Shown one piece after another: positions 9,445 to 28,934 of a DNA stretch of 34,636 bases. The notes below the pieces were generated by a model that saw only the letters and a program-made list of their open reading frames with translations, had not been told where the DNA came from and did no database searches. Source of the DNA: Lachnospiraceae bacterium (lineage in GTDB: Bacteria > Bacillota > Clostridia > Lachnospirales > Lachnospiraceae); the NCBI GenBank assembly GCA_021202715.1, contig JAJQCL010000192.1:1-34636 (forward strand), in the 5' to 3' direction. Position numbers and translations under genes: made by a program. Position 1 is the stretch's first letter. Each line of letters begins with the position of its first letter.

Positions 9445-10629
9445 ATGAATTTTATTTTTATTTCACCGAATTTTCCCACGAACTATTATCATTTCTGTGA
9501 GGAGCTGAAGAAGAACGGCGTCAATGTCCTGGGCATCGGCGACTGCCCCTACGGGGAGCTGACGCCGGAGTGCCGGGGATCTCTGAACGAATACTATAAG
9601 GTGGATTCGCTGGAGGATTATGACGCGGTCTACCGGGCGGTGGCCTTTTTTGCCTTCAAATACGGTCGCATCGACTGGATCGAGAGCAACAATGAATACT
9701 GGCTGGAGCAGGATGCGGCGCTGCGGACGGATTTCCATGTGACCACCGGCTTCCAGACCTCGGACATGAAGAAGGTCAAGTATAAATCGGCCATGAAGGC
9801 TTATTATAAGAAGGCCGGGATCCCCACGGCCCGCTATCTGATGGTCAGCACACTGCTGGCGGTGAAGACCTTCGCCGAGGAGGTCGGCTATCCGGTCATC
9901 GTCAAGCCGGACAACGGCGTGGGCGCCAGTGACACGCATCGTATTGAAAATGAGGAGGAGCTTACGGCCTTCTTCGAGCGCCCGATCGATGTCCCCTACA
10001 TCATGGAGGAGCTGGTGCGCGGCGTGGTCTGCTCCTACGACGCGATCATCGACAGCGAGGGGCATCCGATCTTTGAGTCCGGCAATGTCTCCCCGATGAA
10101 CATCATGGATATCGTCAACGATCAGGACAACTGCTTCTTCTACATGGTAAAGAACCTGCCCGATGATGTGCGGGACGCCGGACGGCGCACGATCGCCGCG
10201 TTCGAGGTGAAGAGCCGTTTCGTGCATCTGGAATTCTTCCGTCTGCAGGAGGATCAGGAGGGGCTGGGGAAGAAGGGCGACATCGTCGGCCTGGAGGTGA
10301 ACATGCGTCCCTCCGGCGGCGTCAGCCCCGATATGCACAATTTCGCCAACAGCACCGATGTGTACAAGATCTGGGCAGATATGGTGACTTACGACAGTTC
10401 CCTCTACGGGCAGGGTGGCGAGCACTATTACTGCGGCTTCGGCAGCCGCCGGAAGGAGCACACATTCCGGCGCAGCCACGAGGAGATCATGGCGAAATAC
10501 GGCCCCCACATCTGCCAGGAGGGCCCCGTGCCGGAGGCTCTCTCCAGCGCCATGGGCGATTATATGTATCTGGTTCGCTTCAAGGAGGAGGACGAGCTGT
10601 TCAACTTTATCCGGGAGCTGTTCGAGTAA
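9445..10629 (+). CDS. ATP-grasp domain protein (carboxylate-amine/thiol ligase superfamily), substrate unknown
   Basis: 394 aa. There is a pre-ATP-grasp Rossmann-like start (MNFIFISPNFPTNYYHF...VNVLGIGD), and central YPVIVKPDNGVGASD and LEFFR...GLEVNMRP segments typical of ATP-grasp nucleotide-binding strands. The RBS is aaaggagagg. Confidence 0.7.
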   Translation: MNFIFISPNFPTNYYHFCEELKKNGVNVLGIGDCPYGELTPECRGSLNEYYKVDSLEDYDAVYRAVAFFAFKYGRIDWIESNNEYWLEQDAALRTDFHVTTGFQTSDMKKVKYKSAMKAYYKKAGIPTARYLMVSTLLAVKTFAEEVGYPVIVKPDNGVGASDTHRIENEEELTAFFERPIDVPYIMEELVRGVVCSYDAIIDSEGHPIFESGNVSPMNIMDIVNDQDNCFFYMVKNLPDDVRDAGRRTIAAFEVKSRFVHLEFFRLQEDQEGLGKKGDIVGLEVNMRPSGGVSPDMHNFANSTDVYKIWADMVTYDSSLYGQGGEHYYCGFGSRRKEHTFRRSHEEIMAKYGPHICQEGPVPEALSSAMGDYMYLVRFKEEDELFNFIRELFE

Positions 10630-10728
10630 AAAGAACTCCGGCCTGTAGCCGGAGAAGAGATACAATGTGGGAAACGGCCGCCGCAGGAGAACTTCGGGCG
10701 GCCGTTTCCGCAGGGAGGAGTACGAACG

Positions 10729-11484
10729 ATGGAATGGATCCTGGGAGCGGCAGGAGCTTTCTGCTTTGTATATTTTGTTGTGTGCGGCCTTTACGCCGGG
10801 TTCGGCGCGTCTTTTCTCGGCCTCTGGCCGGTACTGGGCGTCTTCCTGACGATATGGGCGTTGTCCATGCATCAGGTGAAGGCCGGGCATGTGCTGATCC
10901 ACCTGCCCCGGGGGCTGAAGATTGCCATCTCCGGCGTCCTCCTGTTGGGCGTTCTGGTTTTTGCCGTCATGGAGATCTTGATTGCCTCGCAGATGTTTGC
11001 TGCCGGGGAAGAGAATCTCGATTACCTCATCGTCCTCGGCGCGCAGGTGCGGGGCGACACGGTCAGTGTGGCTCTGGAGGCGCGGCTTGAGAGTGCGAAG
11101 GCCTATCTGGAGGAGAATCCAGACACGCAGGCGATCCTCTCCGGCGGTCAGGGATCCGGTGAGAACCTGACGGAGGCGAAGGCCATGTACGAGTGGCTGA
11201 CAGAGCGGGGCATTGACGGGAACCGTCTGATTCTGGAGGAGGCTTCTACCAGCACCTGGGAGAACCTGACCTTCAGCCGGGAACTCATCGGTTCCACGGA
11301 TGTCTCCGTGGGCATCGTCACCAACAATTTCCACGTTTACCGGGGGACGATGCTGGCCCGGTGCGCCGGTTTCACGCAGGTGTCCGGCATCGCCGCCGAA
11401 TCGCACACGGTCATGCAGCTGCACTTCCTCGTCCGGGAGGGGCTGGCTTTGGCGAAGGATCTGGTGAGGTACCGGATGCTATGA
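10729..11484 (+). CDS. YdcF/DUF218 family membrane protein (ElyC/SanA-like)
   Basis: N-terminal TM helices are followed by the DUF218 pattern LIVLGAQVRGD...ILSGGQGSGENLTEAKAM...EEASTSTWENL...IVTNNFHVYR. Confidence 0.75.
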   Translation: MEWILGAAGAFCFVYFVVCGLYAGFGASFLGLWPVLGVFLTIWALSMHQVKAGHVLIHLPRGLKIAISGVLLLGVLVFAVMEILIASQMFAAGEENLDYLIVLGAQVRGDTVSVALEARLESAKAYLEENPDTQAILSGGQGSGENLTEAKAMYEWLTERGIDGNRLILEEASTSTWENLTFSRELIGSTDVSVGIVTNNFHVYRGTMLARCAGFTQVSGIAAESHTVMQLHFLVREGLALAKDLVRYRML

Positions 11485-13220: not shown

Positions 13221-14399
13221 TTAATCTACAGATATCTTGATGTTTTTCAGCGCCTCTTTGAGCGTCTCCTCGGCTTCGGTCAGCGTCCGTCCCTTGGTGA
13301 TCACATGCCCGATCCGGTCCGGTCCGACGTGGAACTTCCGTACGGAATCCCCGACGCCGTAATCGAAATGGATCTCGCAGAGATTCCCGCCCACGGTGTT
13401 CTCATTCTGAATCGAGGAGATGATTCCGGTCCGGTCGCTTCTCAGCAGCTTGCTGGCATTGGGAACGGCCATCTCGCTGGCGAAGGAGACATCCTCGCCG
13501 AGGGCCGCGCGGATCATTTTCTCATAATAATTGTAGCCGTAGTAGATCGATACCAGCTCTGCGAGGCAGGTGGCGCCGGAGCGCCCGCCGATTTCCAGCA
13601 CATAGACCTTACCCTCTGACAGAATGAAGTCGGCGTTGATGGCGCAGTTGTCGATCCCAAGGGCGGCCGCAGCTCCGGCCAGCTGACGGCGGGTATCTTC
13701 AATCACTTCGTCGCTTTGCTCATACGGCGCGAAATGCCCGGCCGGGACGCCGGTATCCCCGTGAAAGACATAATCTCCATGAGGCAGGATGAACTGAAGC
13801 TCATGATTCCGGATATAGGCCTGTGCGCCGAATTCTTCTCCTTCGATGAATTCCTCGACAATGTAATAATCGAGCCGCGTGTTCGCGCGTACATTTTCCC
13901 GCGCTGCGGCGAACTGCGTTTCGTCATCCACGCGCATGATGCCGCGGCTTCCCGACGTGTCCACCGCTTTGAACATCAGCGGCAGCCGGAGCCCGGCGAG
14001 CTTCCCGGCGAGATCCGCCTCATCGATCGCTACGCGGCGGAAACGGGCCGTGCGCACACCGGCGGCCTCGTATTTCTCCTTCATCAGGAACTTATTGGAC
14101 GCATTTTTCGCCGCTTCATAGCTCAGGCCGGTCAGACCGAGTGCGTCGCAGACCTTCCCGATCGTGACGACGGCGACGTCGGTTCCCGCCGTGAGGATGC
14201 CGTCGATCTGTTCTTCGCGGGCGATCTCCAGAATTTTATCAGCATCGACGGTATTTTCATAGTACACCTTGTCGGCCGCGGCAAAACCCGGATAGTTTCC
14301 GGGGATGCTGACGACGATGGTATACAGCCCCATCTGCCGGGCAGTCTCAATCAGCGGCAGCTGATAGATCCCCGCTCCCAGTATCATCAATTTCTTCAT
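13221..14399 (-). CDS. ATP-grasp domain ligase (carboxylate-amine ligase type common in glycan loci)
   Basis: 392 aa. MKKLMILGAGIYQLPLI...IVVS is a pre-ATP-grasp Rossmann start. LMFKAVDTSGSRGI, IVEEFIEGEEF and VYVLEIGGR are the ATP-grasp B/C-domain strands. It is the last gene of the operon, and its start overlaps the GT2 3' end by 53 nt. Confidence 0.75.
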   Translation of the reverse strand: MKKLMILGAGIYQLPLIETARQMGLYTIVVSIPGNYPGFAAADKVYYENTVDADKILEIAREEQIDGILTAGTDVAVVTIGKVCDALGLTGLSYEAAKNASNKFLMKEKYEAAGVRTARFRRVAIDEADLAGKLAGLRLPLMFKAVDTSGSRGIMRVDDETQFAAARENVRANTRLDYYIVEEFIEGEEFGAQAYIRNHELQFILPHGDYVFHGDTGVPAGHFAPYEQSDEVIEDTRRQLAGAAAALGIDNCAINADFILSEGKVYVLEIGGRSGATCLAELVSIYYGYNYYEKMIRAALGEDVSFASEMAVPNASKLLRSDRTGIISSIQNENTVGGNLCEIHFDYGVGDSVRKFHVGPDRIGHVITKGRTLTEAEETLKEALKNIKISVD

Positions 14400-15339
14400 T
14401 TCCTTTTTCTTTCCTCTCTATTCCGCAGGTTTCCCGCACGACGTACTGCGGATTCCGGTTCATTCCCAGGAACATCCGCCCCACATATTCACCGATCAGC
14501 CCCATGAAGAGAAGGTTGACGCCGGAGAAAAAGCAGATGGCGGCCATCATCGAGGGCCAGCCGATGGCCATGGAGGGATTCAGCAGTCTGCGGATGACGA
14601 TAAACAGGGCGCCCAGGATGCCCAGTACCGAGAATACATAGCCCACATAGGTGGCCAGTCGGAGCGGTACGACCGAGAAGCCGATGATGTTCGACCAGAG
14701 CCGCACGAGCTTCTTGAAGGTGTAGTTCGACTTGCCCACCTCGCGTTCGAAATGTTCGATCGGAATGCAGCTGATATTTCGGGTGGTCCGCAGGAACAGC
14801 CCCTGCGTATAGGCGTAGGCTCCTTTATACTGAATCACATAATCACGGACAAATTTGCGGGTCACCCAGTAGCTCGAAGAGCGCAGCCACTTTGGCTTGC
14901 CGATCAGAATCCGGGAGGAGATGTAATTGATATAGCTGCCGAAATTGCGGAAGCCGCTGTGTTTCTTCTCCGGATAATAGCCGTAAACCAGGTCATAGCC
15001 CTTCTCATATTCGGTCAGGAGCTTCCCCAGCTGCGAGGGATGCGTCTGCATGTCGTCATCCATGCCGATGATCGTATCGCCGGTGGCGAAGTTTAAGGCC
15101 GCCATGATCGCGTTGTGCTGCCCGGCATTGTGAGCCAGAAGGATGACTTTCACGTCACTGCGGGTGCGGCTCAGCTCCCGCAGCACCTGCGCGGTGGCGC
15201 CATCGTCCGGAGAGCAGTCGTCCACGAGGACAAATTCGTGCTCCGGATATCCCAGGCGGTCGAGCTCTTCCGCGGTCAGTGTGACAACCTTCCCGATCGT
15301 GCGGCTTGAATTGTAGCAGGGAATCACGACCGAGATCAT
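14347..15339 (-). CDS. Family-2 glycosyltransferase of the polyprenyl-phosphate sugar synthase type (ArnC/GtrB/CsbB-like)
   Basis: VVIPCYNS...VLVDDCSPDD...NAGQHNAIMAAL...GMDDDMQTHP is the GT-A DXD core. It is followed by two C-terminal TM helices and the GEYVGRMF...NPQYVVRE tail that marks the GtrB/ArnC subgroup. Its ATG overlaps the aminotransferase stop (ATGA at 15336-15339). Confidence 0.85.
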   Translation of the reverse strand: MISVVIPCYNSSRTIGKVVTLTAEELDRLGYPEHEFVLVDDCSPDDGATAQVLRELSRTRSDVKVILLAHNAGQHNAIMAALNFATGDTIIGMDDDMQTHPSQLGKLLTEYEKGYDLVYGYYPEKKHSGFRNFGSYINYISSRILIGKPKWLRSSSYWVTRKFVRDYVIQYKGAYAYTQGLFLRTTRNISCIPIEHFEREVGKSNYTFKKLVRLWSNIIGFSVVPLRLATYVGYVFSVLGILGALFIVIRRLLNPSMAIGWPSMMAAICFFSGVNLLFMGLIGEYVGRMFLGMNRNPQYVVRETCGIERKEKGNEEIDDTGSGDLSAAAD

Positions 15340-16478
15340 TTTGTGTGCCTCCCTGCGTAAAACTGTTTGATGCGTTCACAGACGGCGGTTACGTCGTCCT
15401 CGGTCAGCCCGTAGTACAGAGGAAGGCGCAGCAGCCGGTTACTCTCTCGGGTGGTATAGACGTCTTCCCCGTGGAAACGGCCGAACCGTTCACCGGCCGG
15501 GGCTGTATGCAGAGGAAGATAATGGAAGACCGCGGAGATCCCCGCTTCCTTCAGCCAGGCGATCAGCTCTGTCCGCTCCTCGATGTTGGCGGCCTTGATG
15601 TAAAACATATGTGCGTTATGGACGCAGCCCGCGGGAATGACGGGCAGTTCGATGGCTCCGGATGCGGCCAGAGCACTGAGCTGTTCCCGATACAGCTCCC
15701 AGCTGTGCATGCGGTCCTCATAGATTTCCTGTGCCAGCTCAAGCTGTGCCCAGAGATAGGCCGCATTCAGCTCGCTCGGCAGATAGGAGGATCCCAGATC
15801 CACCCAGGTATATTTGGAAATCTCTCCGCGGTAAAATTTGCTGCGGTTCGTCCCTTTTTCACGGATGATCTCGGCCCGTTCCACGGCCGCGGGATCCCGG
15901 ATCAGGATCGCGCCGCCCTCGCCCATGCTGTAGTTCTTGGTTTCATGGAAGCTGTAGCAGCCGAAGTCTCCGATGGCCCCCAGCGCCTGGCCTTTATATG
16001 AAGACATGACGCCCTGAGCCGCATCCTCGATCACGCAGAGATGGTATCGGCGGGCGATGTCCATGATCGTGTCCATCTCGCAGGATACCCCGGCGTAGTG
16101 CACCGGCACGATGGCGCGGGTCTTCGCGGTGACCGCGTCTTCGATGAGGTTCTCATCGATGTTCATGGTATCCGGGCGGATATCGACAAAGACGACCGTG
16201 GCCCCGCGGAGGACGAACGCGTCCGCCGTCGATACAAAGGTGTAGGAAGGCATGATCACTTCATCGCCCGGATGAATGTCCGCGAGCAGGGCTGCCATCT
16301 CGGTTGCATGGGTGCAGGAGGTGGTAAGCAACGCCTTCGCCGTTCCGGTCTTTTCCTCGATCCATCGGTTGCACTTCTGCGTAAAAGCGCCGTCGCCGCA
16401 GATCTTGTGGGATCTCACAGCCTCCATGATGTACTTGTCTTCCCGACCCGTATAGGGCGGTATGTTGAACTTGATCAT
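15336..16478 (-). CDS. wecE: DegT/DnrJ/EryC1-family PLP aminotransferase, WecE-like (NDP-4-keto-6-deoxyhexose 4-aminotransferase)
   Basis: MIKFNIPPYTGREDKYIMEAVRSHKICGDGAFTQKCNRWIEEKTG parallels the E. coli WecE N-terminus as I recall it (MIPFNAPPVVGTELDYMQSAMGSGKLCGDGGFTRRCQQWLEQRFG). The SFHETKN PLP-lysine region is present. Confidence 0.82.
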   Translation of the reverse strand: MIKFNIPPYTGREDKYIMEAVRSHKICGDGAFTQKCNRWIEEKTGTAKALLTTSCTHATEMAALLADIHPGDEVIMPSYTFVSTADAFVLRGATVVFVDIRPDTMNIDENLIEDAVTAKTRAIVPVHYAGVSCEMDTIMDIARRYHLCVIEDAAQGVMSSYKGQALGAIGDFGCYSFHETKNYSMGEGGAILIRDPAAVERAEIIREKGTNRSKFYRGEISKYTWVDLGSSYLPSELNAAYLWAQLELAQEIYEDRMHSWELYREQLSALAASGAIELPVIPAGCVHNAHMFYIKAANIEERTELIAWLKEAGISAVFHYLPLHTAPAGERFGRFHGEDVYTTRESNRLLRLPLYYGLTEDDVTAVCERIKQFYAGRHTK

Positions 16479-16540
16479 TGTTCACGGTCTCCCTGTGTTA
16501 TGTATCCGCGTCCTGTATGCTGCTCCCCCAAAGGGCGTTT

Positions 16541-17863
16541 TCAGTGTGTTTCACTGATCTCGCAGGCAAAGCAGCGCATCTTGCCGTTCTTATCCGGCGG
16601 AATCACATCCATCCAGTCGAAGAGCAGCTGGAACTCATCGCCGAAGAGCTCCGCCATCTTTTTCGCGAAGAAATCCTCGATTTCTTCACGGGTGTGTTCG
16701 TGATTGTCCGGATCGGCGACCAGCTGCACCCTCATGTCATGCCAGGATTCCTGAATGAACTTAAACTGGGCGATGCCGGTGATGCCGTTCGGGATCTTCA
16801 TCAGATACAGCGCCGAGGTTTCGGGGCCGTTTTCATGTCGGACGAGGTCGTTCACCCGCCCCTGGATGCTCTTTAAATATCTCACGCCGTCCAACGTCAC
16901 GCTGGAAGCCCGGGCGCCGATCTCATAATTGATGAACGGGAAGTCCTTCTTGAAAAGCGTGGTGACGATCACGCGGCCGTCGTCCGTCAACTGGTTTTGT
17001 TCATTATAGATATTCACTACATGCGTATCGCTGTGAATGTAGAATAGGTCAGCGCCGGGAAGTTTCACGGCGATGCTGCCGGTCTCCGAGCTTCCATAGG
17101 CATCGAAGAGTCCGTCGCCAAAGGCTTCCGTCAGGATGCTGCGCGTCATCTCGTCCACCATCTCGCTGACCGGCGTATACAGCTTTGGCTTATAAATAGT
17201 CAGCCCATGCTTCTTCGCATAGAGAGCCATGCGCACCAGACAATTCCGCCGGAAACAGAGCACGTCCGGTTTGTATTCATTCAGCTCGCGGATGACATCC
17301 CCGATGCCGTCGCCGACACAGTTGTCCTCGGAGACCACTCTGCGCCGCATCAGACCGAACTTCTGGATGATCGAATCACCTTTCTTCGGATCGATCTTCT
17401 TATGGCTGGTGACAAAGGAGAACATCTTCCCGCGCAGGGGATGATAGCCCGCAAACATCAGCACCCGGATCCAGTTCGCGTCCACACAGGCACATTCTCT
17501 CTGGGTCTGCATGAACTTGAGCGGGATACCCGAAGAACCGCTGGTGGCAAAGAGCGTCCAGCTGTCATGCTTCTCCGGATGGGCGTCATATTCCTCCTGC
17601 ATCCAGGTGCGGATATCCGCCCGGGAAGTGGTGGGAAATTTCGCCAGATCCTCCGCGGAATGGAAATCCTCCGGGGTGAGATGGTTCTCATCAAAACGTT
17701 TCCGGTAAAAAGGAATCTCATAAGCCCGTTTCATCAGCTCATGGACCTTCTTCCCCTGGCGGCGGCGAATAAAATCCCGATCTTCCGGAATCTTCCGGTC
17801 CAGCTTCATCAGGTAGTAAAAGGTCATCACATTTTTCAGTTTTTTCTCGGGTACAAAAGCCAT
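16541..17863 (-). CDS. Adenylate-forming enzyme of the phenylacetate-CoA ligase / CapK / F390-synthetase family
   Basis: The acyl-AMP P-loop-like motif is present as TSGSSGIPLKF. IPFYRKRFDENHLTPEDF...LAKFPTTSRADI is the typical PaaK/CapK N-terminal region. A strong RBS (ggaggag) lies 4 nt upstream. It is the first gene of the minus-strand operon. Confidence 0.75.
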   Translation of the reverse strand: MAFVPEKKLKNVMTFYYLMKLDRKIPEDRDFIRRRQGKKVHELMKRAYEIPFYRKRFDENHLTPEDFHSAEDLAKFPTTSRADIRTWMQEEYDAHPEKHDSWTLFATSGSSGIPLKFMQTQRECACVDANWIRVLMFAGYHPLRGKMFSFVTSHKKIDPKKGDSIIQKFGLMRRRVVSEDNCVGDGIGDVIRELNEYKPDVLCFRRNCLVRMALYAKKHGLTIYKPKLYTPVSEMVDEMTRSILTEAFGDGLFDAYGSSETGSIAVKLPGADLFYIHSDTHVVNIYNEQNQLTDDGRVIVTTLFKKDFPFINYEIGARASSVTLDGVRYLKSIQGRVNDLVRHENGPETSALYLMKIPNGITGIAQFKFIQESWHDMRVQLVADPDNHEHTREEIEDFFAKKMAELFGDEFQLLFDWMDVIPPDKNGKMRCFACEISETH

Positions 17864-17924
17864 CTTACTCCTCCAAATATCGGCCTGACTATTCTATCAT
17901 ATACCGTCGTGAAACTCAAGCTCC

Positions 17925-17952
17925 TTGCAAATCACTTTCTTTCGTGTATAAT
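17925..17952 (+). promoter_or_regulatory. Candidate sigma-A promoter for the flippase gene
   Basis: ttgcaa (17925-17930)-16 nt-tataat (17947-17952). It is followed by a 5'-UTR hairpin cagcccc...ggggctg and GGAGG 5 nt before the ATG at 18011. Confidence 0.45.
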
Positions 17953-18010
17953 AGGGACAGGGTTCAGCCCCCTCTTACCGGCAGGGGCTGCCCCGTTCCG
18001 GGAGGCACAG

Positions 18011-19450
18011 ATGCAGAATGACAGGCTGAACCGGCTTGCCCTCAAGGCCGGCTTTTTTTATATCGTAGGACAGATGTTTATCCGGGGACTGACGTTCCTT
18101 ATCACACCGATCCTCACCCGGCTGCTCACGCAGGCGCAATACGGGCAGATTCGAGTCTATGAGTCCTGGCTCCTGATCATGGAGCCGGTCATGTCGCTCT
18201 GCCTGTGGCGCAGTGTCGACCGGGCCAAATATGACAGCGGCGTGGATTACGAGGCCTATGTCTCCAGCGTTCACACGCTTTCCTACCTTTCCATCGCCGG
18301 ATTTTTTATCCTTTCGCTGATCTTTAAAAGTCCGCTGCAGGCTTTCCTGTCGATGAATGACCTCATGTTTTACATCGCTTTCCTGTACGTTTTTGCCTAC
18401 ACGAGCATTCTCTTTCTGCAGCGCCGTGAAAAGCAGATGATGCGCTATAAGACCAGTCTTCTGGTCACGACGCTGACGATCGTTCCGGCCACGCTGTTGT
18501 CGATCGTGATGATCTGGCTCGGCCGCAGGATGGGACTCACCGAGAGACTGGTCGATCTGCGCGTTCTGGGCTTCTACATCCCTCAGATCATCGGCGGCTT
18601 CGCGGTGGCGATCCTCCTCTGGGTGCAGGGACGGAAGTTTATCAGCAAAGCCTACTGGAGCTACGCCGTCCGCTACAGCGTTCCCCTGATCCCGGAGGCC
18701 CTGTCCATCCAGATCATGAACCAGTCGGATAAGATCATGATCCAGTTTCTGATCGGCAACGAATATACCGGCATTTTTTCTCTCGGAACGACGATCTCCT
18801 ATATTATCTGGGTGATTGAGGATTCCGTCTGGAACGCTTTCCTGCCTTGGATGTATGAGAAGATCTCCCGCGACGAGGCGGACGAGATCGAAGAGCCATG
18901 GCTGGCTCTGATGCACGGCTTCGGTCTGATCTCCTGGCTGATCACAGCCATGGCGCCGGAGCTGGTGATGATCCTCGGATCAAGCAAATATCATGCGACC
19001 GTCTATCTGATCGCGCCCATGGTCACCGGGACGCTGTTCCGGTTTTACAGCTATATCTACACGGCCGTGCAGAATTACAACAAAAAAACGCAGTATGTCG
19101 CAGCGGGAACCGTGGGCGTGATGTTCGTCAACATCGCCCTCAATTACATCTGCATCCTGCGTTTCGGATATATGGCGGCGGCCTATACGACGGCCTTCAG
19201 CTACTTCCTGCTGCTCCTCCTTCAGGGCTTTCTGGAAAAAAGAGTCACCGGTATGCGGGTGACCTCTCTGAGGAAAAATGTGTTGATCGCAGTGGGCTAT
19301 CTGGCCGCGAACCTCGCCACGATGAAGCTCTTTGACCTGAAATGGTATGTCCGCTATGCGGCGATCCTTCTCGTGGCGGCCGTCGCCGCGCGGCTCGTGC
19401 TTCCCCGGCTGCTGAAGGTGCTGCGTTCCTTCCGTTCGAAGAAAAACTGA
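18011..19450 (+). CDS. wzx: Oligosaccharide/polysaccharide flippase, MOP superfamily PST (Wzx-like)
   Basis: 479 aa and polytopic. The N-terminus NRLALKAGFFYIVGQMFIRGLTFLITPILTRLLTQAQYG is the PST-family signature region. The listed ORF from 17207 is an antisense read-through. The ATG at 18011 is in frame and has GGAGG at 18001-18005. Confidence 0.8.
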   Translation: MQNDRLNRLALKAGFFYIVGQMFIRGLTFLITPILTRLLTQAQYGQIRVYESWLLIMEPVMSLCLWRSVDRAKYDSGVDYEAYVSSVHTLSYLSIAGFFILSLIFKSPLQAFLSMNDLMFYIAFLYVFAYTSILFLQRREKQMMRYKTSLLVTTLTIVPATLLSIVMIWLGRRMGLTERLVDLRVLGFYIPQIIGGFAVAILLWVQGRKFISKAYWSYAVRYSVPLIPEALSIQIMNQSDKIMIQFLIGNEYTGIFSLGTTISYIIWVIEDSVWNAFLPWMYEKISRDEADEIEEPWLALMHGFGLISWLITAMAPELVMILGSSKYHATVYLIAPMVTGTLFRFYSYIYTAVQNYNKKTQYVAAGTVGVMFVNIALNYICILRFGYMAAAYTTAFSYFLLLLLQGFLEKRVTGMRVTSLRKNVLIAVGYLAANLATMKLFDLKWYVRYAAILLVAAVAARLVLPRLLKVLRSFRSKKN

Positions 19451-19462
19451 ACCTCAGACAGA

Positions 19463-19497
19463 ATCGGCTCCCGAACCTTCGGGAGCCGATGACTTTT
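19463..19497. terminator. Terminator between the convergent wzx and the YfhO-fusion gene
   Basis: A 13-nt inverted repeat pairs atcggctcccgaa (19463-19475) with ttcgggagccgat (19478-19490). It is followed by gactttt. Confidence 0.75.
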
Positions 19498-19505
19498 CAG
19501 GATGA

Positions 19506-22500
19506 TCAGGAGCCGATTCCCGTTCGGGATGGACGCTTCCTCCGACCGTAAAGAACCAGAATGACAAACAGAACGACGGCCAGGACGGTGATTGCCAGCC
19601 CGATCTTTAACCCTGGCATTTCATAGACCAGCACGATGCTGTGCTCGCCGGGTTCCAGTTCGAGCCCCATATACATGATGTTCACGGTGAGAAGCTCCGT
19701 CTCCTCACCGTCCACCCAGGCTGTCCATCCACTCTGAGAGGGGATGCTTAAGGCAAGCAGTTTGGACTCTGTCAGGGAAATGGTCCCGCTGAGGCCGTTG
19801 TCCCGGATCTCCACATTTTCCAGGACATCCTCTGTCAGCGCCGCGATCTGGGACGGATAGTCGTCCATCGGCTGGCAGTAGAGAGACAATTCATCATAAT
19901 AAATGGTACCGGCGGTCCTGAAGGTCAGAGTGATCTTGCTGAGTCCCTTCTCACTGTAGCCGCAGTTGATCAGATGTTCATCGAGCTCCAGATAATAGGT
20001 GTTTTCAGGGCTTCTCATAAGATAGGTGTATTTCCCGCAGTCGTCCTTGATCCGGATCTTGAGAATCGGGTTCCCATCATCCTCGAGAGGAATGCAGGAT
20101 CCGTCCAGCACCAGATATGTCTCTGAATTTGGCAGACCCTCGAAATACAAGGTGATACTGCCTCCCTCCTGCGCGGTAATCACGCCGTCTTCCCAGGTCA
20201 CGTTCTTACATTTAAAAGAATCAATCGGTATTTCTTGACTGGTAACCACCGGTTCGATTTCTGTCGCCTGATCCTCTGTTTCTTCTGTATCTATTACGGC
20301 AAATGACATCATGAGCTCCTGTCTTTCCAGGGGGCTGTATTCCAGAAAGCTGTCAAGACTGATTGTCTCAGTGTACGTGTACCCCAGCGGCAGGCTGTAC
20401 TGATTTTCATAAATCGTATAGTTTTCTCCTTCGTACTCGGTCTCCTGAAGGATTGTATATCCATAAGGAGTCATCCAGTTGTCCGTCTGTTTTTCTGCGA
20501 CACTGCAGTATTTGACACAGGCGAGGGCATTCAGACTGGTCCGGTTGTTGTAGCTGATCTGCTTGACAGAGGTCGTCATGATATTGCCCAGCAGGCTGTT
20601 AAAATCCTGAATATTCCCGTTGATGGTACTGTTGAAATACGAGATACTGTTTAATCCCAGAGCCATGGAAGCACTCAGCTGGAGTTCACTGGGATGACTT
20701 TCGGTGACTCTGTAAAAACTGTCGTCCTCGAGGGTCGTCAGGGCCTGAATGGCTGCACCGTTGGCTGCTTCGTCGCTGGTGCCGATCTCTGTATATTCGC
20801 TGACTGCGTTTCCTTCGGACAGGCCGTAATACACATCTCCGCTCACATACAGGGAGACCGCCAGGAGAAGTCCGAAGGCAGCCGTCATCCCCCGTCGTCC
20901 CAGAATATCGGTGCTGTCTGCTGAAAAGATCATAAGAAGGAGCGAAGTCAGCAGCAGGACGGAGGCTTTTAAAGTATAGGTCGTGCTGTAGTCAATAAAG
21001 AGGACGGCGATCAGAATATAGGGCAGGACAGCCAGGGACAGGACCTTTATGTCTTTCTGCGTCAGGCCTCTGACGGCGGGCAGCATCTCCGCCGTGATGA
21101 CCGCAGACAATAACACCAGGATATAGCTCCAGCGGTTATTGACATTTGACAGGCCGCCGAGCGCATAGCCGACCATGGGAAACAGAAGGCAGAGCACACC
21201 GATCACTGTCAGGATTTTGAGAACGCGCCGGTCCTTTTTCAGGAACAACAGGATCTGGCAGAGGTAGACCGTGGGGATCAGCCCTGTCCGGAGACCGTAT
21301 CCGGCACCGTCCCCGGTCGTCAGATAGAACATATAGACAGAAGTAGGCCAGGATGCCCGGTAAAACATCAGGGAATCCGTTGTGATCACTCCGGCTGCGG
21401 TACGGCCCGAACTGGCATAGGAGGAGAAGGTGGTGACGAGTCCCATGCATCCCATCGCCACGCCGAGAAGATAGGCCCCCGCAAAAAGCCCCAGGTAGCT
21501 GAAGAATGTCGCAAGAGTTCGCCTGCTCTTCTCCATGCAGAAAAAGCGCACCAGAAAATATACGATCAGAGCGATCGTGTTCATATAGAGGAAATAATAA
21601 TTGCTGAGCAGCGACAGCGCGATCAGGACGCTTCCGAGGGCCCATTTCTTTTCACGGAGAATCTGTTCGACCGCAATCACCAGTAGGGGCAGAAAGATCA
21701 TTCCGGCCGAGAACTGGGGATGATGCGCCACGGAAAACAGGGCATAGCCGGAAAATGCATAAATATAACTGCAGAAAAGGGTCAGCTTTACCCCTTTTTT
21801 CAGATAGATAAACAGAGCTGAGGCACTCAGACCGATCAGCCAGAAGCGGACCAGAGTCAGAGCCGTATAGCCGGTTTCCATGTTGTCTGGTGAAAAAAGC
21901 GCATACAGCCAGTAGACCGGATAGAGACTGAACTGCACCCGGTTGCCCATACCGATCGTGAAATCATAGGTTTTCAATGAAAAACTGCCCTGTAAAACAG
22001 ACTGAAGAAAATCGCGGACATACTGTGAGAAATAAATGGCTTTGGGATAATATTGCGCGATCGCATCGGGACTCCATACAAGCGAGATACCATTCTCCAG
22101 AAAAGGAAGAAATACAGCGGCCGCCAGCAGACAAAAGCCCAGTGTGTAAAGAAGGATATACTGCCAGCAGCGGATCCGGTTCTTTTCAAACCAGATCTTT
22201 GTAAGCTGTTTTCGAACCTGTGTTGCCAGCAGATCGATCACGGCAGCAACGACCCAGACGAGGAGGAAGAGAAAAGGTCGCAGGATCATTTTCAGCTCGC
22301 TGTATCCGCCAACTGTTTTCAGGATATACAGAGCCAGGATCATCACGGCTGTGCGCGGCCATGCTCGGCCTGTCAGCCACCTTGCCCTGCTTAGAGGCCG
22401 AAGCAGATATTTTTGTCCGATATATGCGAAAGCGAGGACGATACCAAATGGAAACAGGACTTCCCAGTAGCGGGTGGGGAAAGTCAGCGCACTGGCAAAC

Positions 22501-23177
22501 GCGCGGAATTTCCACAGGCAGAGAGCCGCTGTGAGGAGGAGCCCGGCGAGAAGAAGCGGCAAGGGCAACCCTTTGCTCTCCGATTGTTTCTCCGCAATGG
22601 TATAACCAAGAAAATAGTAAAGGGAAAAAGCGAGCAGGGGGATACAGCTGTAGGTGTTCGTTCCGAGCCATACGCCGAGAAAGGAATACCCAAACAGGTT
22701 GGACGGAAGCCACAGAATGCCCAGCAGAATGATTCCTGCCGCTGCGGCCGCTGCTTTGTGGTGCATCAGACGCTGGAGCGGACGGCCGACCGCAGCGGAG
22801 AGGAGGAGCGCCGCCATGGAAAAATAGATTTCCGCATACATGGGAATGTGTCTGAGAAGAAGCAGGTTGAACAGGCTGCTTACGACTCCGTTTCCGGTCT
22901 CAAGACAGCGCCGGCACATTCCTGTCAGGAGAAATAATCCAAAGTAACAGACGGCAAGCCGCACATGGCGCAGGGGAACTTTCCCGGCGAGGTCCTCCTG
23001 CACCTGATAGCCCGTCAGGGTGACCAGACCGGCAAAAAGTACATAATAGACACAACGAACGACGGCATGCGTCACAGCCGTATAATCTCCGAAAAGCCGC
23101 AGGCATAACAGAAAAACACTGCCGTATAAAAGCAGTGCCTGTATATCTGAAGAAGTACAGGAATCCTTCTTTTTCAT
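19506..23177 (-). CDS. Large polytopic membrane protein: unassigned ~330-aa N-terminal multi-TM domain fused to a YfhO-family (GT-C-like) glycosyltransferase with an extracytoplasmic C-terminal region and a terminal TM anchor
   Basis: 1223 aa in one uninterrupted frame. From about aa 335, CWQYILLYTLGFCLLAAAVFLPFLENGISLVWSPDAIAQYYPKAIYFSQYV...YDFTIGMG matches the YfhO start region. About 890 aa follow, close to B. subtilis YfhO length. The RBS is agaggtg. Confidence 0.78.
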   Translation of the reverse strand: MKKKDSCTSSDIQALLLYGSVFLLCLRLFGDYTAVTHAVVRCVYYVLFAGLVTLTGYQVQEDLAGKVPLRHVRLAVCYFGLFLLTGMCRRCLETGNGVVSSLFNLLLLRHIPMYAEIYFSMAALLLSAAVGRPLQRLMHHKAAAAAAGIILLGILWLPSNLFGYSFLGVWLGTNTYSCIPLLAFSLYYFLGYTIAEKQSESKGLPLPLLLAGLLLTAALCLWKFRAFASALTFPTRYWEVLFPFGIVLAFAYIGQKYLLRPLSRARWLTGRAWPRTAVMILALYILKTVGGYSELKMILRPFLFLLVWVVAAVIDLLATQVRKQLTKIWFEKNRIRCWQYILLYTLGFCLLAAAVFLPFLENGISLVWSPDAIAQYYPKAIYFSQYVRDFLQSVLQGSFSLKTYDFTIGMGNRVQFSLYPVYWLYALFSPDNMETGYTALTLVRFWLIGLSASALFIYLKKGVKLTLFCSYIYAFSGYALFSVAHHPQFSAGMIFLPLLVIAVEQILREKKWALGSVLIALSLLSNYYFLYMNTIALIVYFLVRFFCMEKSRRTLATFFSYLGLFAGAYLLGVAMGCMGLVTTFSSYASSGRTAAGVITTDSLMFYRASWPTSVYMFYLTTGDGAGYGLRTGLIPTVYLCQILLFLKKDRRVLKILTVIGVLCLLFPMVGYALGGLSNVNNRWSYILVLLSAVITAEMLPAVRGLTQKDIKVLSLAVLPYILIAVLFIDYSTTYTLKASVLLLTSLLLMIFSADSTDILGRRGMTAAFGLLLAVSLYVSGDVYYGLSEGNAVSEYTEIGTSDEAANGAAIQALTTLEDDSFYRVTESHPSELQLSASMALGLNSISYFNSTINGNIQDFNSLLGNIMTTSVKQISYNNRTSLNALACVKYCSVAEKQTDNWMTPYGYTILQETEYEGENYTIYENQYSLPLGYTYTETISLDSFLEYSPLERQELMMSFAVIDTEETEDQATEIEPVVTSQEIPIDSFKCKNVTWEDGVITAQEGGSITLYFEGLPNSETYLVLDGSCIPLEDDGNPILKIRIKDDCGKYTYLMRSPENTYYLELDEHLINCGYSEKGLSKITLTFRTAGTIYYDELSLYCQPMDDYPSQIAALTEDVLENVEIRDNGLSGTISLTESKLLALSIPSQSGWTAWVDGEETELLTVNIMYMGLELEPGEHSIVLVYEMPGLKIGLAITVLAVVLFVILVLYGRRKRPSRTGIGS

Positions 23178-23228: not shown

Positions 23229-23266
23229 AGAGCAGGAGAGGATATGATCTGTCCGTCTCCTGCTCT
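23229..23266 (-). terminator. Hairpin after the L,D-transpeptidase gene, separating it from the YfhO-fusion gene
   Basis: An 11-bp stem pairs agagcaggaga (23229-23239) with tctcctgctct (23256-23266) around a 16-nt loop. The minus-strand 3' flank ttgcggc is only weakly T-rich. Confidence 0.5.
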
Positions 23267-23278
23267 GGGATAAACGAT

Positions 23279-25069
23279 TTAATAGATGATGATTTTTGAT
23301 CCCAGCGGAACCTTGTAATAGATAAACTGCGCCATCGAATCCGTGGTTCGGACACAGCCGTGCGAGACCGGTCTCCCAAGTGTGGAGTTCACATATGCTC
23401 CGTTGCTGTAATACTTGCCCCTCTGATGAATCGCATTCGTAGACTGGAATTTGCTCCAGTATGAATAGGAACAGGTATTATATTTTTTGGTAGACATATG
23501 GGCATAGATGGTATAGACCCCCAGTGGAGTCGGGGTGTAGGTCAGGCCGGTGCCGCACTGAGCGGTCTTATAAAGCTCCCAGTTGCCTTCACTGTTCTTT
23601 TTAAACACATTGATTCTCTGTGTATAGGTGCTTACCCAGACCAGATATTTCGATGAACTGGTATATCCTTTCCCATTGACAAAGATTTCTTTTTCCTCTG
23701 TTGTATAATCGCTGGTGGTATAATCCTGAGAGGTCATATTCAGATATTTGCTGTTCATATAGTAGGTTTTGCCTTTGATTTTGACCGTACTCAGGTATTT
23801 GGTGGAACGCCTGTAGGTGACCGTGACCTTTGTTCCCGCAGAGACGGTCATCGCCTGTTTCTTGCCGCTCGACGAGGTATATACGGGAGCCGTTTTCTTG
23901 ACGGTGGCGCTGTAATACATGGCGTGAACCTTGCTGAGGACGGCATCCACCGCATCCTCATCATAGACCGTCATGGTGACGGCCGGAGACCTGTATGTTT
24001 CGCCTTCGTATTTTCTGTAGGCGACGACTTTGTACTTATAGTATGTTGCCTCCTTGACGTCGGTGTCCGTGTATGTCTTATCAGATTTGACCTTGGCGAT
24101 TCTGGTATATTTCCCGGTCTTACTGTTATATCTGTAAACCAGATAGCCTGTCGCATTGGTCACACCGGACCAGGTTAGCGTGATTCCGTTGTCGGTGACC
24201 GTAAGCTCCAGAGACTTGGGGGCTTTCAGATCCGCGAATTTCGGAGTCGCTGATACTTTTTTGGATTTTTTCCCTGTCTCATACTTTCCTTCGGTGCCGT
24301 ATTTCCGGTAGGCACGAATGACATACGTATAGGTCTTCCCGTTCGTAAGATCCTTCACGGTATATTTGAGCTTTTTGGTAGATTTAATGCGGGTGTATTT
24401 TCCGGTTTTGGTATTGTATGAATAAATGAGATAGCCGGTGGCGTCCTCGACCTCATTCCACGTAAGCGTGATCCGCGTATCGCCGGCCTTTGCCTTAACG
24501 CCGGTCACTTTTGCAGGGATGACGCTGTACGGAGTGGCAGATACCTTCTTGCTGTATTTCGCATACACTTTTTTGCCGTCGGATTTTACATAGGCTGCCA
24601 CGACAAAGGTGTATTCCGTATCGGCCTCCAGATCCTTTACGGTATAGGAGGTTTTCTTTGTGGAGGCAACGGGGGTATATGTCTCGTCGGACGAGTTATA
24701 CGTGTATATCCTGTATCCATCCGCGTCGTCGGATGCTTTCCAGGTCAGCTTTACGGCGTGCTCTTTACTGACCGCTTTCAGTCCGGTCACTTTGGCAGGG
24801 GCGGCTGCCGTGGTGGTCTCTTCTGTGCTCGCTTCTGTGCTTTCCGCGGCCGTCGTCTCCCGGATCGCCTCTACGGCTTCCGTGCTCTCTGTCTCTGGCG
24901 TCTTCGTGATTTCTTCTGTTTCTTCTTCGGTGGTCTCCGCAGTTTCTGTTTCCTGAACAGCCTCCACGGCTGTCTCCAGCGCAGAGGCAGCGACGGGCCT
25001 GGATCCTCCCAGTGTCAATACGGTCAGCACAAGAAAAAGCAGAAGCGACATGTTAAAGTTTTTTTTCAT
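23279..25069 (-). CDS. Secreted L,D-transpeptidase (YkuD domain) with a Thr/Glu-rich linker, three FN3 repeats and an SH3-like module
   Basis: A signal peptide (MKKNFNMSLLLFLVLTVLTLGG) is followed by an ETETAETTEEETEE linker. Three ~95-aa repeats carry the LTW...DATGY.IY.YN pattern (FN3). The C-terminal catalytic motif is GRPVSHGCVRT. I place the start at the ATG at 25069 (third Met of the listed ORF), which gives a proper signal peptide. Confidence 0.85.
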   Translation of the reverse strand: MKKNFNMSLLLFLVLTVLTLGGSRPVAASALETAVEAVQETETAETTEEETEEITKTPETESTEAVEAIRETTAAESTEASTEETTTAAAPAKVTGLKAVSKEHAVKLTWKASDDADGYRIYTYNSSDETYTPVASTKKTSYTVKDLEADTEYTFVVAAYVKSDGKKVYAKYSKKVSATPYSVIPAKVTGVKAKAGDTRITLTWNEVEDATGYLIYSYNTKTGKYTRIKSTKKLKYTVKDLTNGKTYTYVIRAYRKYGTEGKYETGKKSKKVSATPKFADLKAPKSLELTVTDNGITLTWSGVTNATGYLVYRYNSKTGKYTRIAKVKSDKTYTDTDVKEATYYKYKVVAYRKYEGETYRSPAVTMTVYDEDAVDAVLSKVHAMYYSATVKKTAPVYTSSSGKKQAMTVSAGTKVTVTYRRSTKYLSTVKIKGKTYYMNSKYLNMTSQDYTTSDYTTEEKEIFVNGKGYTSSSKYLVWVSTYTQRINVFKKNSEGNWELYKTAQCGTGLTYTPTPLGVYTIYAHMSTKKYNTCSYSYWSKFQSTNAIHQRGKYYSNGAYVNSTLGRPVSHGCVRTTDSMAQFIYYKVPLGSKIIIY

Positions 25070-25204
25070 ACGTTTTATATCCTCGATCGTTTCCTGCCAG
25101 CACATGCGTTTCAGACAAGGTGCTGTAAAATAATGATAAAACAAATGTCAATTCAGTATAGCAAATAATTTGCCTGTGTGTCAATATGCATGAAAAGGGA
25201 TGTC

Positions 25205-28197: not shown

Positions 28198-28419
28198 GCG
28201 ATACTACTTTCGTATGGAAATTCTATGATGTGAGCCGTGAAATATGTTCTTTAACTCACAATATTTACAAATTCAGTTTATCATCCGATCAGATTCCCGT
28301 CAATCATTTTATTTCCGGAACATCGCGGATGGTGCGGAAGAAAATCCCGGAGAAAAGGAACCGGGCACGGCTCAAATTAAAATAAGGAAGAAAAATCGCT
28401 CCTCTTATTTCAAGTTCGA

Positions 28420-28448
28420 TTGCTAAATTGAAATAACTAGGGTATAAT
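28420..28448 (+). promoter_or_regulatory. Candidate promoter of the decayed toxin-antitoxin module
   Basis: ttgcta (28420-28425)-17 nt-tataat (28443-28448). The RBS aaggag lies upstream of the ATG at 28481. Confidence 0.5.
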
Positions 28449-28480
28449 GAAAGCAATGTAGATTTGAAGGAGATAAAAAG

Positions 28481-28720
28481 ATGAGCAATAAAGAAAGAAT
28501 CGTACAATTATTAGATATTATTCCGGAATATAAGATCGGCTATGTGCTGGCATATATCCAGGGACTGGTAGCTGATGAAGAAGCAGACAATGCATTCTGT
28601 GAAAAACTGGTCAGGGACTATGAAAACGATACGGACCCTGAGAAGGAGGAAGAGTATACGCTGGAAGAATGCAAAAAACATACCAGATTGTTATTAAGAA
28701 GAGAGCGAAGAAGTTTATAG
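28481..28720 (+). CDS. Small acidic antitoxin-like protein; its 3' end runs 52 nt into the toxin frame
   Basis: 79 aa with an acidic C-terminal half (DEEADN...DTDPEKEEEY), located immediately upstream of a RelE/ParE-type reading frame. I did not recognise the family. The last ~13 residues (TRLLLRRERRSL) look like out-of-frame read-through after an A6 run at 28672-28677. Confidence 0.4.
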   Translation: MSNKERIVQLLDIIPEYKIGYVLAYIQGLVADEEADNAFCEKLVRDYENDTDPEKEEEYTLEECKKHTRLLLRRERRSL

Positions 28721-28928
28721 AAGCATTGCCCAGAAACGAGCGCGCCAGAATTGTTGCGGAGATTGAAAAGCTTCCGGCGGAGAGGACATCAAAAAGTTAA
28801 AGGGGCACAAAGATTATTTTCGGCTGAGAGTGGGAAGCTACAGAATTATCTACACTGTAGATAACGGGAAATGTGTTGTATGTGTCATTGACGCCGGGAA
28901 TCGAGGCGAAATTTATAACAGGTATTAA
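28669..28928 (+). pseudogene. RelE/ParE-family toxin gene disrupted by a frameshift
   Basis: Frame A (28669-28800) gives MQKTYQIVIKKRAKKFIEALPRNERARIVAEIEKLPAERTSKS*. Frame B (from 28785) gives DIKKLKGHKDYFRLRVGSYRIIYTVDNGKCVVCVIDAGNRGEIYNRY*. Joined, they form a complete RelE/StbE-like sequence. One nucleotide is missing near 28783-28785. Confidence 0.65.
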
Positions 28929-28934
28929 TGAATG

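Follow-up and report, generated by a model that had tools for sequence, protein, structure and literature searches.

We describe a locus of a Lachnospiraceae bacterium that encodes the parts of a transmembrane glycosylation system together with a sugar aminotransferase and two ATP-dependent ligases. It lies in a contig of which 34.6 kb (34,636 nt), hereafter called the window, was analysed with a table of open reading frames (ORFs) and with profile searches of these ORFs. We consider it probable, though well short of certain, that the locus is a multi-component transmembrane glycosylation module decorating an extracytoplasmic acceptor in the cell envelope with a modified 4-amino-4,6-dideoxyhexose. 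The components of such a system are present, namely a family 2 glycosyltransferase (GT2) of the GtrB/CsbB/ArnC class, a Wzx-type flippase divergently adjoining the operon, and a YfhO protein with a C-type glycosyltransferase (GT-C) domain. The genes and domains are the following (aa, amino acids).

13221-14399, minus strand: ATP-grasp ligase of the L-amino-acid-ligase (LAL) type, 392 aa, with LAL_C2 and ATP-grasp_4 domains
14347-15339, minus strand: membrane-anchored GT2 of the ArnC/GtrB/CsbB class, 330 aa, Glycos_transf_2
15336-16478, minus strand: WecE-type aminotransferase, 380 aa, DegT_DnrJ_EryC1 and WecE equivalog models
16541-17863, minus strand: CapK/PaaK-like adenylate-forming enzyme, 440 aa, PaaK-like, with PF27533 in its homologues
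18011-19450, plus strand: PST/Wzx-type flippase of the MOP superfamily, 479 aa, Polysacc_synt
19506-23177, minus strand: YfhO protein, 1223 aa, PF09586
19506-22127, minus strand: GT-C domain of the YfhO protein, residues 351-1223, PF09586 match
22128-23177, minus strand: extra N-terminal membrane domain of the YfhO protein, residues 1-350, about 8-10 helices, outside Pfam
23279-25144, minus strand: fn3-repeat YkuD L,D-transpeptidase with fn3 and YkuD domains, directly upstream of the YfhO gene, start codon uncertain

The first four genes form one operon, in which the CapK-like and aminotransferase genes are separated by 62 nt (16479-16540), the aminotransferase stop and GT2 start share 4 nt (ATGA, 15336-15339), and the GT2 and ATP-grasp genes share 53 nt (14347-14399). 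These coordinates and spacings, the terminator of the operon, the 147-nt divergent region and the converging YfhO gene had all been described in a sequence-only reading of the window, and all were reproduced. As listed mechanically, the flippase ORF starts at 17207; because its Pfam match begins only at ORF residue 279 and an ATG at 18011 is preceded by a GGGAGG Shine-Dalgarno sequence, we place the gene at 18011-19450.

Enzymes of the locus

There is strong evidence that the aminotransferase is of the WecE type and would act on dTDP-4-keto-6-deoxy-D-glucose (dTDP, deoxythymidine diphosphate) to give a dTDP-4-amino-4,6-dideoxyhexose. It passes the cut-offs of two WecE equivalog models, NF008687 (634.5 bits against 375) and TIGR02379 (634.1 bits against 434.85), with residues 1-374 covered, and is 67.6% identical over 367 columns to the solved enterobacterial WecE (6BLG, 4PIW; E 1e-166). 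The motif around the pyridoxal phosphate-binding lysine, SFHETKN, is present. The models for PseC, DesI and ArnB all stay well under their cut-offs on this protein, that for ArnB (NF008658) giving 190 bits against 631. The equivalog scores and the identity to solved WecE thus bear out the earlier assignment to the sugar aminotransferases. The product is probably dTDP-Fuc4N (Fuc4N, 4-amino-4,6-dideoxygalactose), for which the galacto configuration is assumed from the 68% identity to WecE. The 67.6% identity to the Klebsiella and Escherichia coli enzymes is unusually high for a clostridial and an enterobacterial protein, and suggests horizontal transfer.

The GT2 (Glycos_transf_2, 88 bits) carries DDxxxDD and DDD motifs and two hydrophobic C-terminal helices, at residues 228-254 and 263-286. 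Its closest solved relatives are ArnC enzymes (9HWJ, 9BHC and 8VXH, 140-149 bits), followed by GtrB (5EKP, 113 bits) and DPMS, and it aligns over its full length to the models of ArnC (NF007986, 153 bits, cut-off 529) and PgfS (152.8 bits, cut-off 500). Because of the helices, these alignments and the solved relatives, we assign the protein to the class of polyprenyl-phosphate monosaccharide synthases and not to the processive or soluble GT2 enzymes, in agreement with the sequence-only reading, and propose that it is an undecaprenyl-phosphate sugar synthase.

The ATP-grasp protein matches LAL_C2 (46.3 bits, cut-off 29.4) and ATP-grasp_4 (39.6 bits, cut-off 27), and falls under every NCBIfam equivalog cut-off, including those of BacD, DdaF, PurD, PurT and Ddl. 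Its nearest solved structure is 4DIM (E 4e-80), followed by the L-amino-acid ligases BL00235 and BacD, and then by PurD and PurT. 4DIM was deposited as 'Phosphoribosylglycinamide synthetase'; it is probably an orthologue of the family of the window's ligase, and hence misnamed. We considered whether the ligase might use formate, like PurT, and so mirror formylation by ArnA directly; PurT aligns over the full length with only 48 bits, below the matches to L-amino-acid ligases, and we neither favour nor discount this reading. Our proposal is that the enzyme joins an amino acid or another carboxylate to the sugar by an amide bond. The ATP-grasp family is large (at least 2042 clusters), and its coupling to the GT2 extends beyond the window: the two genes were found together in 47 loci, and in 37 of 44 pairs the ATP-grasp gene directly follows the GT2 gene, overlapping or abutting it, most commonly with a 4-nt overlap.

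For the CapK-like protein, an exact-sequence look-up gave no hit, Pfam gave no matches at E up to 10, and the matches to the Protein Data Bank are distant (PaaK 2Y27 at 3.6e-8, AjiA1 and PaaK-like ligases). Among the NCBIfam models, PaaK matches partially (56.8 bits, cut-off 646) and F390-synthetase and FlxY are also touched, all far under their cut-offs, which shows that the protein is not a PaaK equivalog. The protein belongs to a tight family, in which homologues that are 58-93% identical carry the CapK_C domain (PF27533) in precomputed annotation, and the nearest relatives are found in metagenome-assembled genomes of Lachnospiraceae (93-94% identity) and in Dorea species (83%), which marks the host as a Gram-positive clostridial bacterium of the gut. 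Across 17 CapK-like sequences the residues T107-S108-G109-S110-G112-P114, Y256-G257-E260-T261-G262, G335-R336-N338-D339 and N426-G427-K428 are invariant. We take the corresponding motifs TSGSSG.P, YG..ETG, GR.ND and NGK to be the ANL adenylation motifs, that is, the P-loop-like motif, YGxxE, the GRxxD hinge and the C-terminal catalytic lysine. A PaaK/CapK-like protein of Vibrio cholerae, VpsH, is genetically required for the glycine amide placed on a bactoprenyl-linked uronic acid before flipping (PMC13463779). By analogy, we propose that the CapK-like enzyme is a second ligase, forming an amide or an ester, with the lipid-linked sugar as a possible substrate. In many relatives the CapK gene is adjoined by an ApbA (ketopantoate-reductase-family) or Ldh-type gene (L001 11357-13458, L004 11347-12267, L088 9014-9979), and an Acyl_transf_3 gene sometimes follows the CapK and ApbA genes. 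The 2-ketoacid reductase beside CapK suggests a 2-hydroxy acid as the CapK substrate in these relatives; no ApbA- or Ldh-type ketoacid reductase is encoded in the window.

Profile searches also uphold the earlier identification of the flippase (Polysacc_synt, 64.7 bits, cut-off 28.2), which has many hydrophobic helices, and of the YfhO protein (PF09586, 332.6 bits, cut-off 28.5), of which residues 352-1197 cover positions 9-835 of the 835 positions of the profile. The latter has a large extracytoplasmic part and a C-terminal transmembrane helix, and D371, at the start of the YfhO domain, is kept in 27 of 28 long YfhO proteins. Only two NCBIfam models touch it, PgfM2 (71.7 bits, cut-off 1500) and PgfM1 (45.7 bits, cut-off 1400), and a search by sequence against solved structures gave no matches. 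While the YfhO assignment stands with a whole-model match, the sequence-only reading had overlooked that the first 350 residues form an extra membrane domain outside the YfhO model. This N-terminal domain matches no Pfam family even at E up to 10. A word-indexed homologue search with it returned nothing, and an exhaustive search found only 20 representatives, the strongest being mostly N-termini of proteins of about 1160-1250 aa; the domain is nearly confined to the front of the YfhO proteins of these loci, which are roughly 1160-1300 aa long. Such long YfhO proteins co-occur with a Lachnospiraceae-type Wzx in 19 of 21 cases. An AlphaFold2 model of the domain (predicted local distance difference test, pLDDT, 79; predicted template modelling score, pTM, 0.80) has its best fold matches among the membrane acyltransferases GWT1 and HGSNAT, with non-significant scores (template modelling score 0.40-0.41, E 0.16-0.5), and no conserved polar residue was found in it across an alignment of 28 long YfhO proteins. 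Because the matches are weak and conserved polar residues are absent, the interpretation as an acyltransferase was dropped.

Recurrence in related genomes and the acceptor

The neighbourhoods of 80 loci from species-representative genomes, gathered with the CapK alignment, were mapped by tblastn and by unbiased ORF clustering. Their taxa include Lachnospiraceae, Marvinbryantia, Jingyaoa, Muricoprocola, Anaerovoracaceae, Mogibacterium, Oscillospiraceae, Coriobacteriaceae and Atopobiaceae; culturable carriers are, for example, Lachnospiraceae bacterium 3-2, Jingyaoa shaoxingensis and Muricoprocola aceti. The counts below refer to the 42 loci with full 10-kb flanks.

GT2 and ATP-grasp ligase: 31/42
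Any Wzx-type gene, usually adjoining CapK: 32/42
GT2, ATP-grasp ligase and Wzx-type gene: 27/42
Aminotransferase: 15/42
Long YfhO protein: 13/42
fn3-YkuD protein: 15/42
At least one of TagF, TagH or LCP genes: 21/42

The commonest companions of CapK are the GT2 and ATP-grasp pair and the Wzx-type flippase, and across Lachnospiraceae, Anaerovoracaceae and Coriobacteriia the module persists through at least ten different gene arrangements. Dozens of species keep these genes together, in several orders, and we therefore regard their arrangement as beyond chance, and comparative genomics functionally links the two ligases to the GT2 and the flippase. The sequence-only reading had asked whether a six-gene neighbourhood is conserved; the genes do recur with their order shuffled, but not as a six-gene unit, given the lower counts of the aminotransferase and the long YfhO protein. 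Dorea-type loci have all six genes and an ApbA-type reductase, sometimes with Acyl_transf_3 after CapK, and loci of the L006/L061 type have five, with the aminotransferase absent and uppS adjoining.

This recurrence bears on whether the two ligases could be unrelated to glycosylation, making a small peptide or metabolite and standing here by chance. L-amino-acid-ligase-type ATP-grasp proteins and PaaK-like enzymes do often make small molecules. Set against this are the 47 loci with GT2 and ATP-grasp together, mostly with a start/stop overlap, and the adjacency of CapK to a Wzx-type gene in most loci, across several families, two phyla and many orders. We find coincidental adjacency scarcely credible and reject it.

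Several observations weigh against the proposed decoration of a wall polymer with an aminosugar. The loci were picked by CapK similarity, which in itself guarantees the presence of CapK; ORFs were called and clustered crudely, and truncation affects many contigs of the locus set. CapK also occurs with ApbA alone or with Wzx alone. In about two-thirds of the related loci no aminotransferase gene lies within the 10-kb neighbourhood (complete genomes with the module but no local aminotransferase include Bacterium 1XD42-54 and MGYG-HGUT-00137), and the sugar of the conserved GT2 and ATP-grasp pair therefore need not be an aminosugar everywhere. Neither rmlA nor rmlB is in the window, and no teichoic-acid gene was found there. 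Relatives of YfhO are also known to glycosylate proteins; the Pgf models are the only ones of NCBIfam touched by the YfhO protein, and the GT2 scores equally on PgfS and ArnC. The acylation targets of both ligases are pure inference.

The frequent lack of the aminotransferase gives room to another sugar: the module could carry a carboxylate sugar, such as a uronic acid, which the ligases would amidate as in the case of VpsH, with the WecE-type enzyme as an accessory that serves another glycan or marks a lineage variant. ATP-grasp amidoligases acting on sugar carboxylates are known. VpsH, the sole CapK-like enzyme for which we found genetic evidence, amidates the carboxylate of a uronic acid (PMC13463779). 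In the window, however, the aminotransferase stop overlaps the GT2 start by 4 nt within one operon, and no UDP-sugar dehydrogenase was seen among the ORFs. Among solved structures the GT2 is nearest to the ArnC enzymes, whose substrate is a 4-acylamino sugar. Elsewhere, the aminotransferase lies directly beside CapK or GT2 in 24 loci, in several arrangements, and in L088 it is followed by an RmlA-like gene. We therefore rate a carboxylate sugar as quite unlikely. The identity of GT2 and ATP-grasp to the proteins of the window follows taxonomy and not the presence of the aminotransferase, GT2 being 67% identical both in Dorea loci with the aminotransferase and in the L006 or L016 loci without it. 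This fits an aminotransferase gene encoded elsewhere in the genome where no local one is present.

Returning to the aminosugar, its acceptor is most likely a teichoic acid, of the wall or lipid-anchored type, or else a different secondary wall polymer, as judged from the gene context in other taxa. The sequence-only reading had pointed to teichoic acids and to rml genes elsewhere in the genome; in other taxa, modules do sit within teichoic-acid clusters with RmlA- or RmlB-like genes. In loci of the Anaerovoracaceae type the module is flanked by TagF-like, TagG/H and LCP genes. L088 has Ldh, CapK, aminotransferase, an RmlA-like NTP_transferase, Wzx, ATP-grasp and GT2, all between LCP genes and TagF/TagGH. 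L004 combines CapK, ApbA, GtrA, GT2 and a short YfhO protein in a teichoic-acid context, and an RmlB-like dehydratase is found in eight loci.

A protein acceptor was weighed as well. The YfhO protein might O-glycosylate Ser/Thr-rich disordered linkers in secreted or membrane-associated proteins, for example the long Thr/Glu-rich linker that follows the signal peptide of the fn3-YkuD protein encoded upstream in the window. The Pgf matches of the YfhO protein and the GT2 point in this direction, and streptococcal GT-C enzymes are reported to glycosylate such linker regions (PMC12041528). Of the 42 full loci, 15 have an fn3-YkuD homologue no more than 10 kb from the module, in varied positions and taxa (among others L001, L004, L008, L011, L031, L032 and L089), and the only other contig with an identical YfhO protein, 6.3 kb long, repeats the fn3-YkuD/YfhO pairing. 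On the other side, the equivalog cut-offs of the Pgf models are missed by a wide margin (72 against 1500; 153 against 500), no PgfE-type epimerase is encoded in the window, the module is set in teichoic-acid clusters in other taxa, and YkuD paralogues are numerous in Clostridia, a background that may account for the count of 15. We think a protein acceptor unlikely; the fn3-YkuD protein may nevertheless be a glycosylation target or a functional partner of the module.

For a wall polymer as the acceptor, we envisage the following pathway. RmlA and RmlB, encoded outside the window, would make dTDP-4-keto-6-deoxy-D-glucose, which the WecE-type aminotransferase, on the strength of its close homology, would convert to dTDP-Fuc4N. 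The ArnC/GtrB-class GT2 would load the sugar onto undecaprenyl phosphate, as its class suggests. Just before or after this lipid transfer, the translationally coupled ATP-grasp ligase would acylate the 4-amine with an amino acid or small acid, a step that could fill the thermodynamic and recognition role of formylation in the Arn pathway of lipid A modification. Still on the cytoplasmic side, the CapK-like enzyme would attach a further acyl group or an amide, probably to the lipid-linked intermediate and in the manner of VpsH; many relatives would supply it with a 2-hydroxy acid made by the adjoining ApbA- or Ldh-type reductase. The Wzx-type protein, again by class, would flip the lipid-linked sugar, and the GT-C domain of YfhO would hand it to the acceptor outside the membrane. 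The order of the steps, the carboxylate used by each ligase and the final state of the amine, which may be free, aminoacylated or capped, are our proposals. Of the original claim that the locus decorates the envelope with a 4-amino-dideoxyhexose, the enzyme classes and the co-conservation are upheld, whereas the ligase targets and the acceptor are conjectural.

Some further arrangements were seen among the related loci. In about 20 Lachnospiraceae-type loci (L016-L021, L052, L057-L086 flanks) the module lies beside a block of pyrH, frr, uppS, cdsA, dxr and rseP, which puts it next to the gene for undecaprenyl-pyrophosphate synthase. L089 (5148-9970) holds a second GT2 and ATP-grasp pair after a Polysacc_deac_1 gene and before two small EamA proteins (124 and 111 aa). 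We take Polysacc_deac_1 to be the family of ArnD and EamA that of ArnE/F, which would place L089 nearer to ArnD/ArnC/ArnE/ArnF than the window is. In a Dorea-type locus (L001-L003, 7853-8371) a ToxN_toxin gene, presumably for the toxin of a type III toxin-antitoxin abortive-infection system, stands between the ATP-grasp and Wzx genes.

Surroundings and control elements

The combination of a PST/Wzx flippase, a GT2 and a sugar aminotransferase is typical of capsule loci, and the genes could in principle lie at the margin of a standard capsule or O-antigen-type locus of the Wzx/Wzy kind, in which Wzx would flip a repeat unit linked to undecaprenyl pyrophosphate. The sequence-only reading had recognised no priming phosphoglycosyltransferase, Wzy or Wzz; we likewise found none among the ORFs of the 34.6 kb window, nor a tyrosine kinase or a further glycosyltransferase, and because of these absences we do not regard the locus as a capsule-locus edge. 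The flanks are of a housekeeping character (Cys/Met PLP enzyme, MATE transporter, AhpC/F, V-ATPase), the GT2 bears the C-terminal transmembrane pair of undecaprenyl-phosphate monosaccharide synthases, the locus includes a YfhO GT-C, and elsewhere this small module is found with no capsule genes. The capsule interpretation is thus very improbable, and we reject it. Four points on which the sequence-only reading had staked itself therefore came out in its favour: the genes recur together, the locus is not the edge of a capsule cluster, the GT2 is of the polyprenyl-phosphate class, and the aminotransferase belongs to a sugar subfamily.

One flank encodes V-type ATPase subunits, PlsC, NAPRTase, a GH18-LysM protein, two esterases, a second ATP-grasp protein with a DUF218 protein, and the Cys/Met PLP enzyme. 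The other encodes the fn3-YkuD protein, the MATE transporter, an fn3/Big_3 protein, AhpC/AhpF, a DUF234 ATPase and a ParE/Phd pair. The control elements of the locus and three further features of the flanks are listed here.

13158-13128, minus strand: intrinsic terminator of the four-gene operon, from a hairpin scan
17864-18010, both strands: divergent control region of 147 nt with promoter-like hexamers
19464-19489, no strand assigned: 10-bp hairpin between the Wzx and YfhO genes, bidirectional and terminator-like, TCGGCTCCCG-aacctt-CGGGAGCCGA
9445-11484, plus strand: second, unrelated ATP-grasp gene (weak Pfam matches only), followed by that of a DUF218 membrane protein
28198-29019: low-GC stretch of 820 nt (0.44) without a long ORF, containing a 79-aa ORF and two short ORFs in different frames
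33968-34617, minus strand: intact pair of a ParE toxin and a Phd-YefM antitoxin, at the end of the window

The stem-loop of the operon terminator, AGCGAGGTATAG...CTATACCTCGCT, followed by the T-run ATGTTTTT, lies 63 nt beyond the ATP-grasp stop codon; the scan gives a stem of 14 pairs with a 3-nt loop, which can also be drawn as a perfect 12-bp stem with a 7-nt loop. Within the divergent region, promoter-like sites recognised by consensus match only are TTGCAA-16-TATAAT on the plus strand (17925-17952) and TTGAGT-17-TAGAAT with an extended TG on the minus strand (17919-17891). The yfhO gene has its own GAGGTG ribosome-binding site and the ykuD gene its own hairpin (23229-23266). An Rfam search of the window gave no RNA families, and a repeat search around the locus found no insertion-sequence or island boundaries. 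The second ATP-grasp and DUF218 pair was not detected in the related loci. The low-GC stretch may be a decayed toxin-antitoxin pair, as its ORFs resemble, by eye, an antitoxin and a frameshifted RelE/ParE-type toxin.

Relation to known systems and biological meaning

Judged by the components that define them, the locus is neither an Arn nor a Pgf system nor a Wzx/Wzy locus. Our literature search found no paper describing the module; the Lipocone paper was checked and is unrelated. With the Arn pathway the locus shares a logic in which a 4-keto nucleotide sugar is transaminated, the amine is masked by an acyl group, a GT2 transfers the sugar to undecaprenyl phosphate, and the product is flipped and moved by a GT-C to an envelope molecule. 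The closest solved relatives of the GT2 are ArnC enzymes, yet with 153 bits against 529 it is not an ArnC equivalog. Arn uses UDP-4-amino-4-deoxy-L-arabinose, whereas the sugar of the window would be a dTDP-6-deoxyhexose made via WecE (ArnB model, 190 against 631). Domains of ArnA and ArnD are absent among the window ORFs, and two ATP-dependent ligases replace the Arn formyltransferase; in place of the ArnE/F flippase and the GT-C ArnT, the window has a Wzx-type flippase and a YfhO GT-C. Since the host is Gram-positive, lipid A is excluded as the acceptor, unlike in Arn. The likeness to Arn drawn in the sequence-only reading thus holds for the logic, while equivalents of ArnA, ArnB, ArnD, ArnE/F and ArnT are absent or swapped for unrelated families.

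The CsbB/GtcA/YfhO and GtlA/GtcA/GtlB systems of Bacillus, Listeria and Staphylococcus (PMC5836110, PMC8035078) share a membrane-bound A-type glycosyltransferase that makes an undecaprenyl-phosphate (C55-P) sugar, a flippase and a YfhO-family GT-C. They differ in having a GtrA-type flippase and no aminotransferase or ligase, whereas the flippase of the window is of the Wzx type and its YfhO protein has the additional 350-residue N-terminal membrane domain. In every row shown of the systems tabulated in a 2021 review, the sugar added is galactose or N-acetylglucosamine (GlcNAc), both common sugars moved without modification, and the words 'aminotransferase' and 'ligase' never occur in that review (PMC8035078). 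GacI/GacJ/GacK/GacL, which build the GlcNAc side chain of the group A carbohydrate in Streptococcus pyogenes (PMC8035078), share a C55-P-sugar synthase, the Wzx-type flippase GacK and a GT-C with the window; they differ in that the sugar is GlcNAc, GacL is not a YfhO protein, and tailoring by an aminotransferase and ligases is lacking. The Pgf system for protein O-glycosylation of Streptococcus mutans (PgfS, PgfM1, PgfE, PgfM2) likewise combines a GT2 with C-terminal transmembrane helices and a YfhO-like GT-C, but has no aminotransferase, ligases or Wzx, and the window proteins score 152.8, 45.7 and 71.7 bits against the cut-offs of 500, 1400 and 1500 for PgfS, PgfM1 and PgfM2.

The VpsH case (PMC13463779) shares a PaaK/CapK-like enzyme in a glycan locus and an amide on a bactoprenyl-linked sugar before flipping, a likeness by family and not by sequence comparison. 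VpsH belongs to a Wzx/Wzy repeat-unit pathway and acts on the carboxylate of a uronic acid; because a 6-deoxy aminosugar has no carboxylate, the chemistry in the window would have to differ, by N-acylation or by amidation of the acid added first. The aminotransferase, finally, passes the equivalog models of the WecE of enterobacterial common antigen at 67.6% identity. In that pathway the product is N-acetylated by WecD and moved by WecF onto a disaccharide linked to undecaprenyl pyrophosphate; neither gene is in the window.

In sum, the module works like Arn and like CsbB/GtcA/YfhO or GacI-L, belongs to none of them, and is spread widely in gut anaerobes, bringing with it two large unnamed families of enzymes. 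More speculatively, acyl- or aminoacyl-capped Fuc4N, built by the GT2-coupled ATP-grasp ligase and the CapK-like ligase and placed by YfhO on teichoic acid in gut Clostridia and some Coriobacteriia could be a Gram-positive counterpart of aminoarabinose, tuning charge and antigenicity and adding to or replacing D-alanylation. In its boldest form, the fn3-YkuD protein would cross-link the decorated polymer to peptidoglycan via the amino-acid handle. We put this picture forward as a doubtful one.

The coupling of GT2 to ATP-grasp and the aminosugar branch were unexpected, and what we say of them beyond enzyme class is inference. Through the coupling, a very large and unnamed ATP-grasp family acquires a function that can be tested. 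The module does likewise for the CapK_C family, for which VpsH is the only genetic clue found so far. If our interpretation is true, it would reveal a new route to complex, possibly zwitterionic or cationic, wall decorations on abundant gut commensals, among them Dorea, Marvinbryantia, Jingyaoa, Anaerovoracaceae, Mogibacterium and Coriobacteriia. As expected from other wall decorations, these would then bear on how well the cells resist cationic peptides, adsorb phages and are recognised by the immune system.

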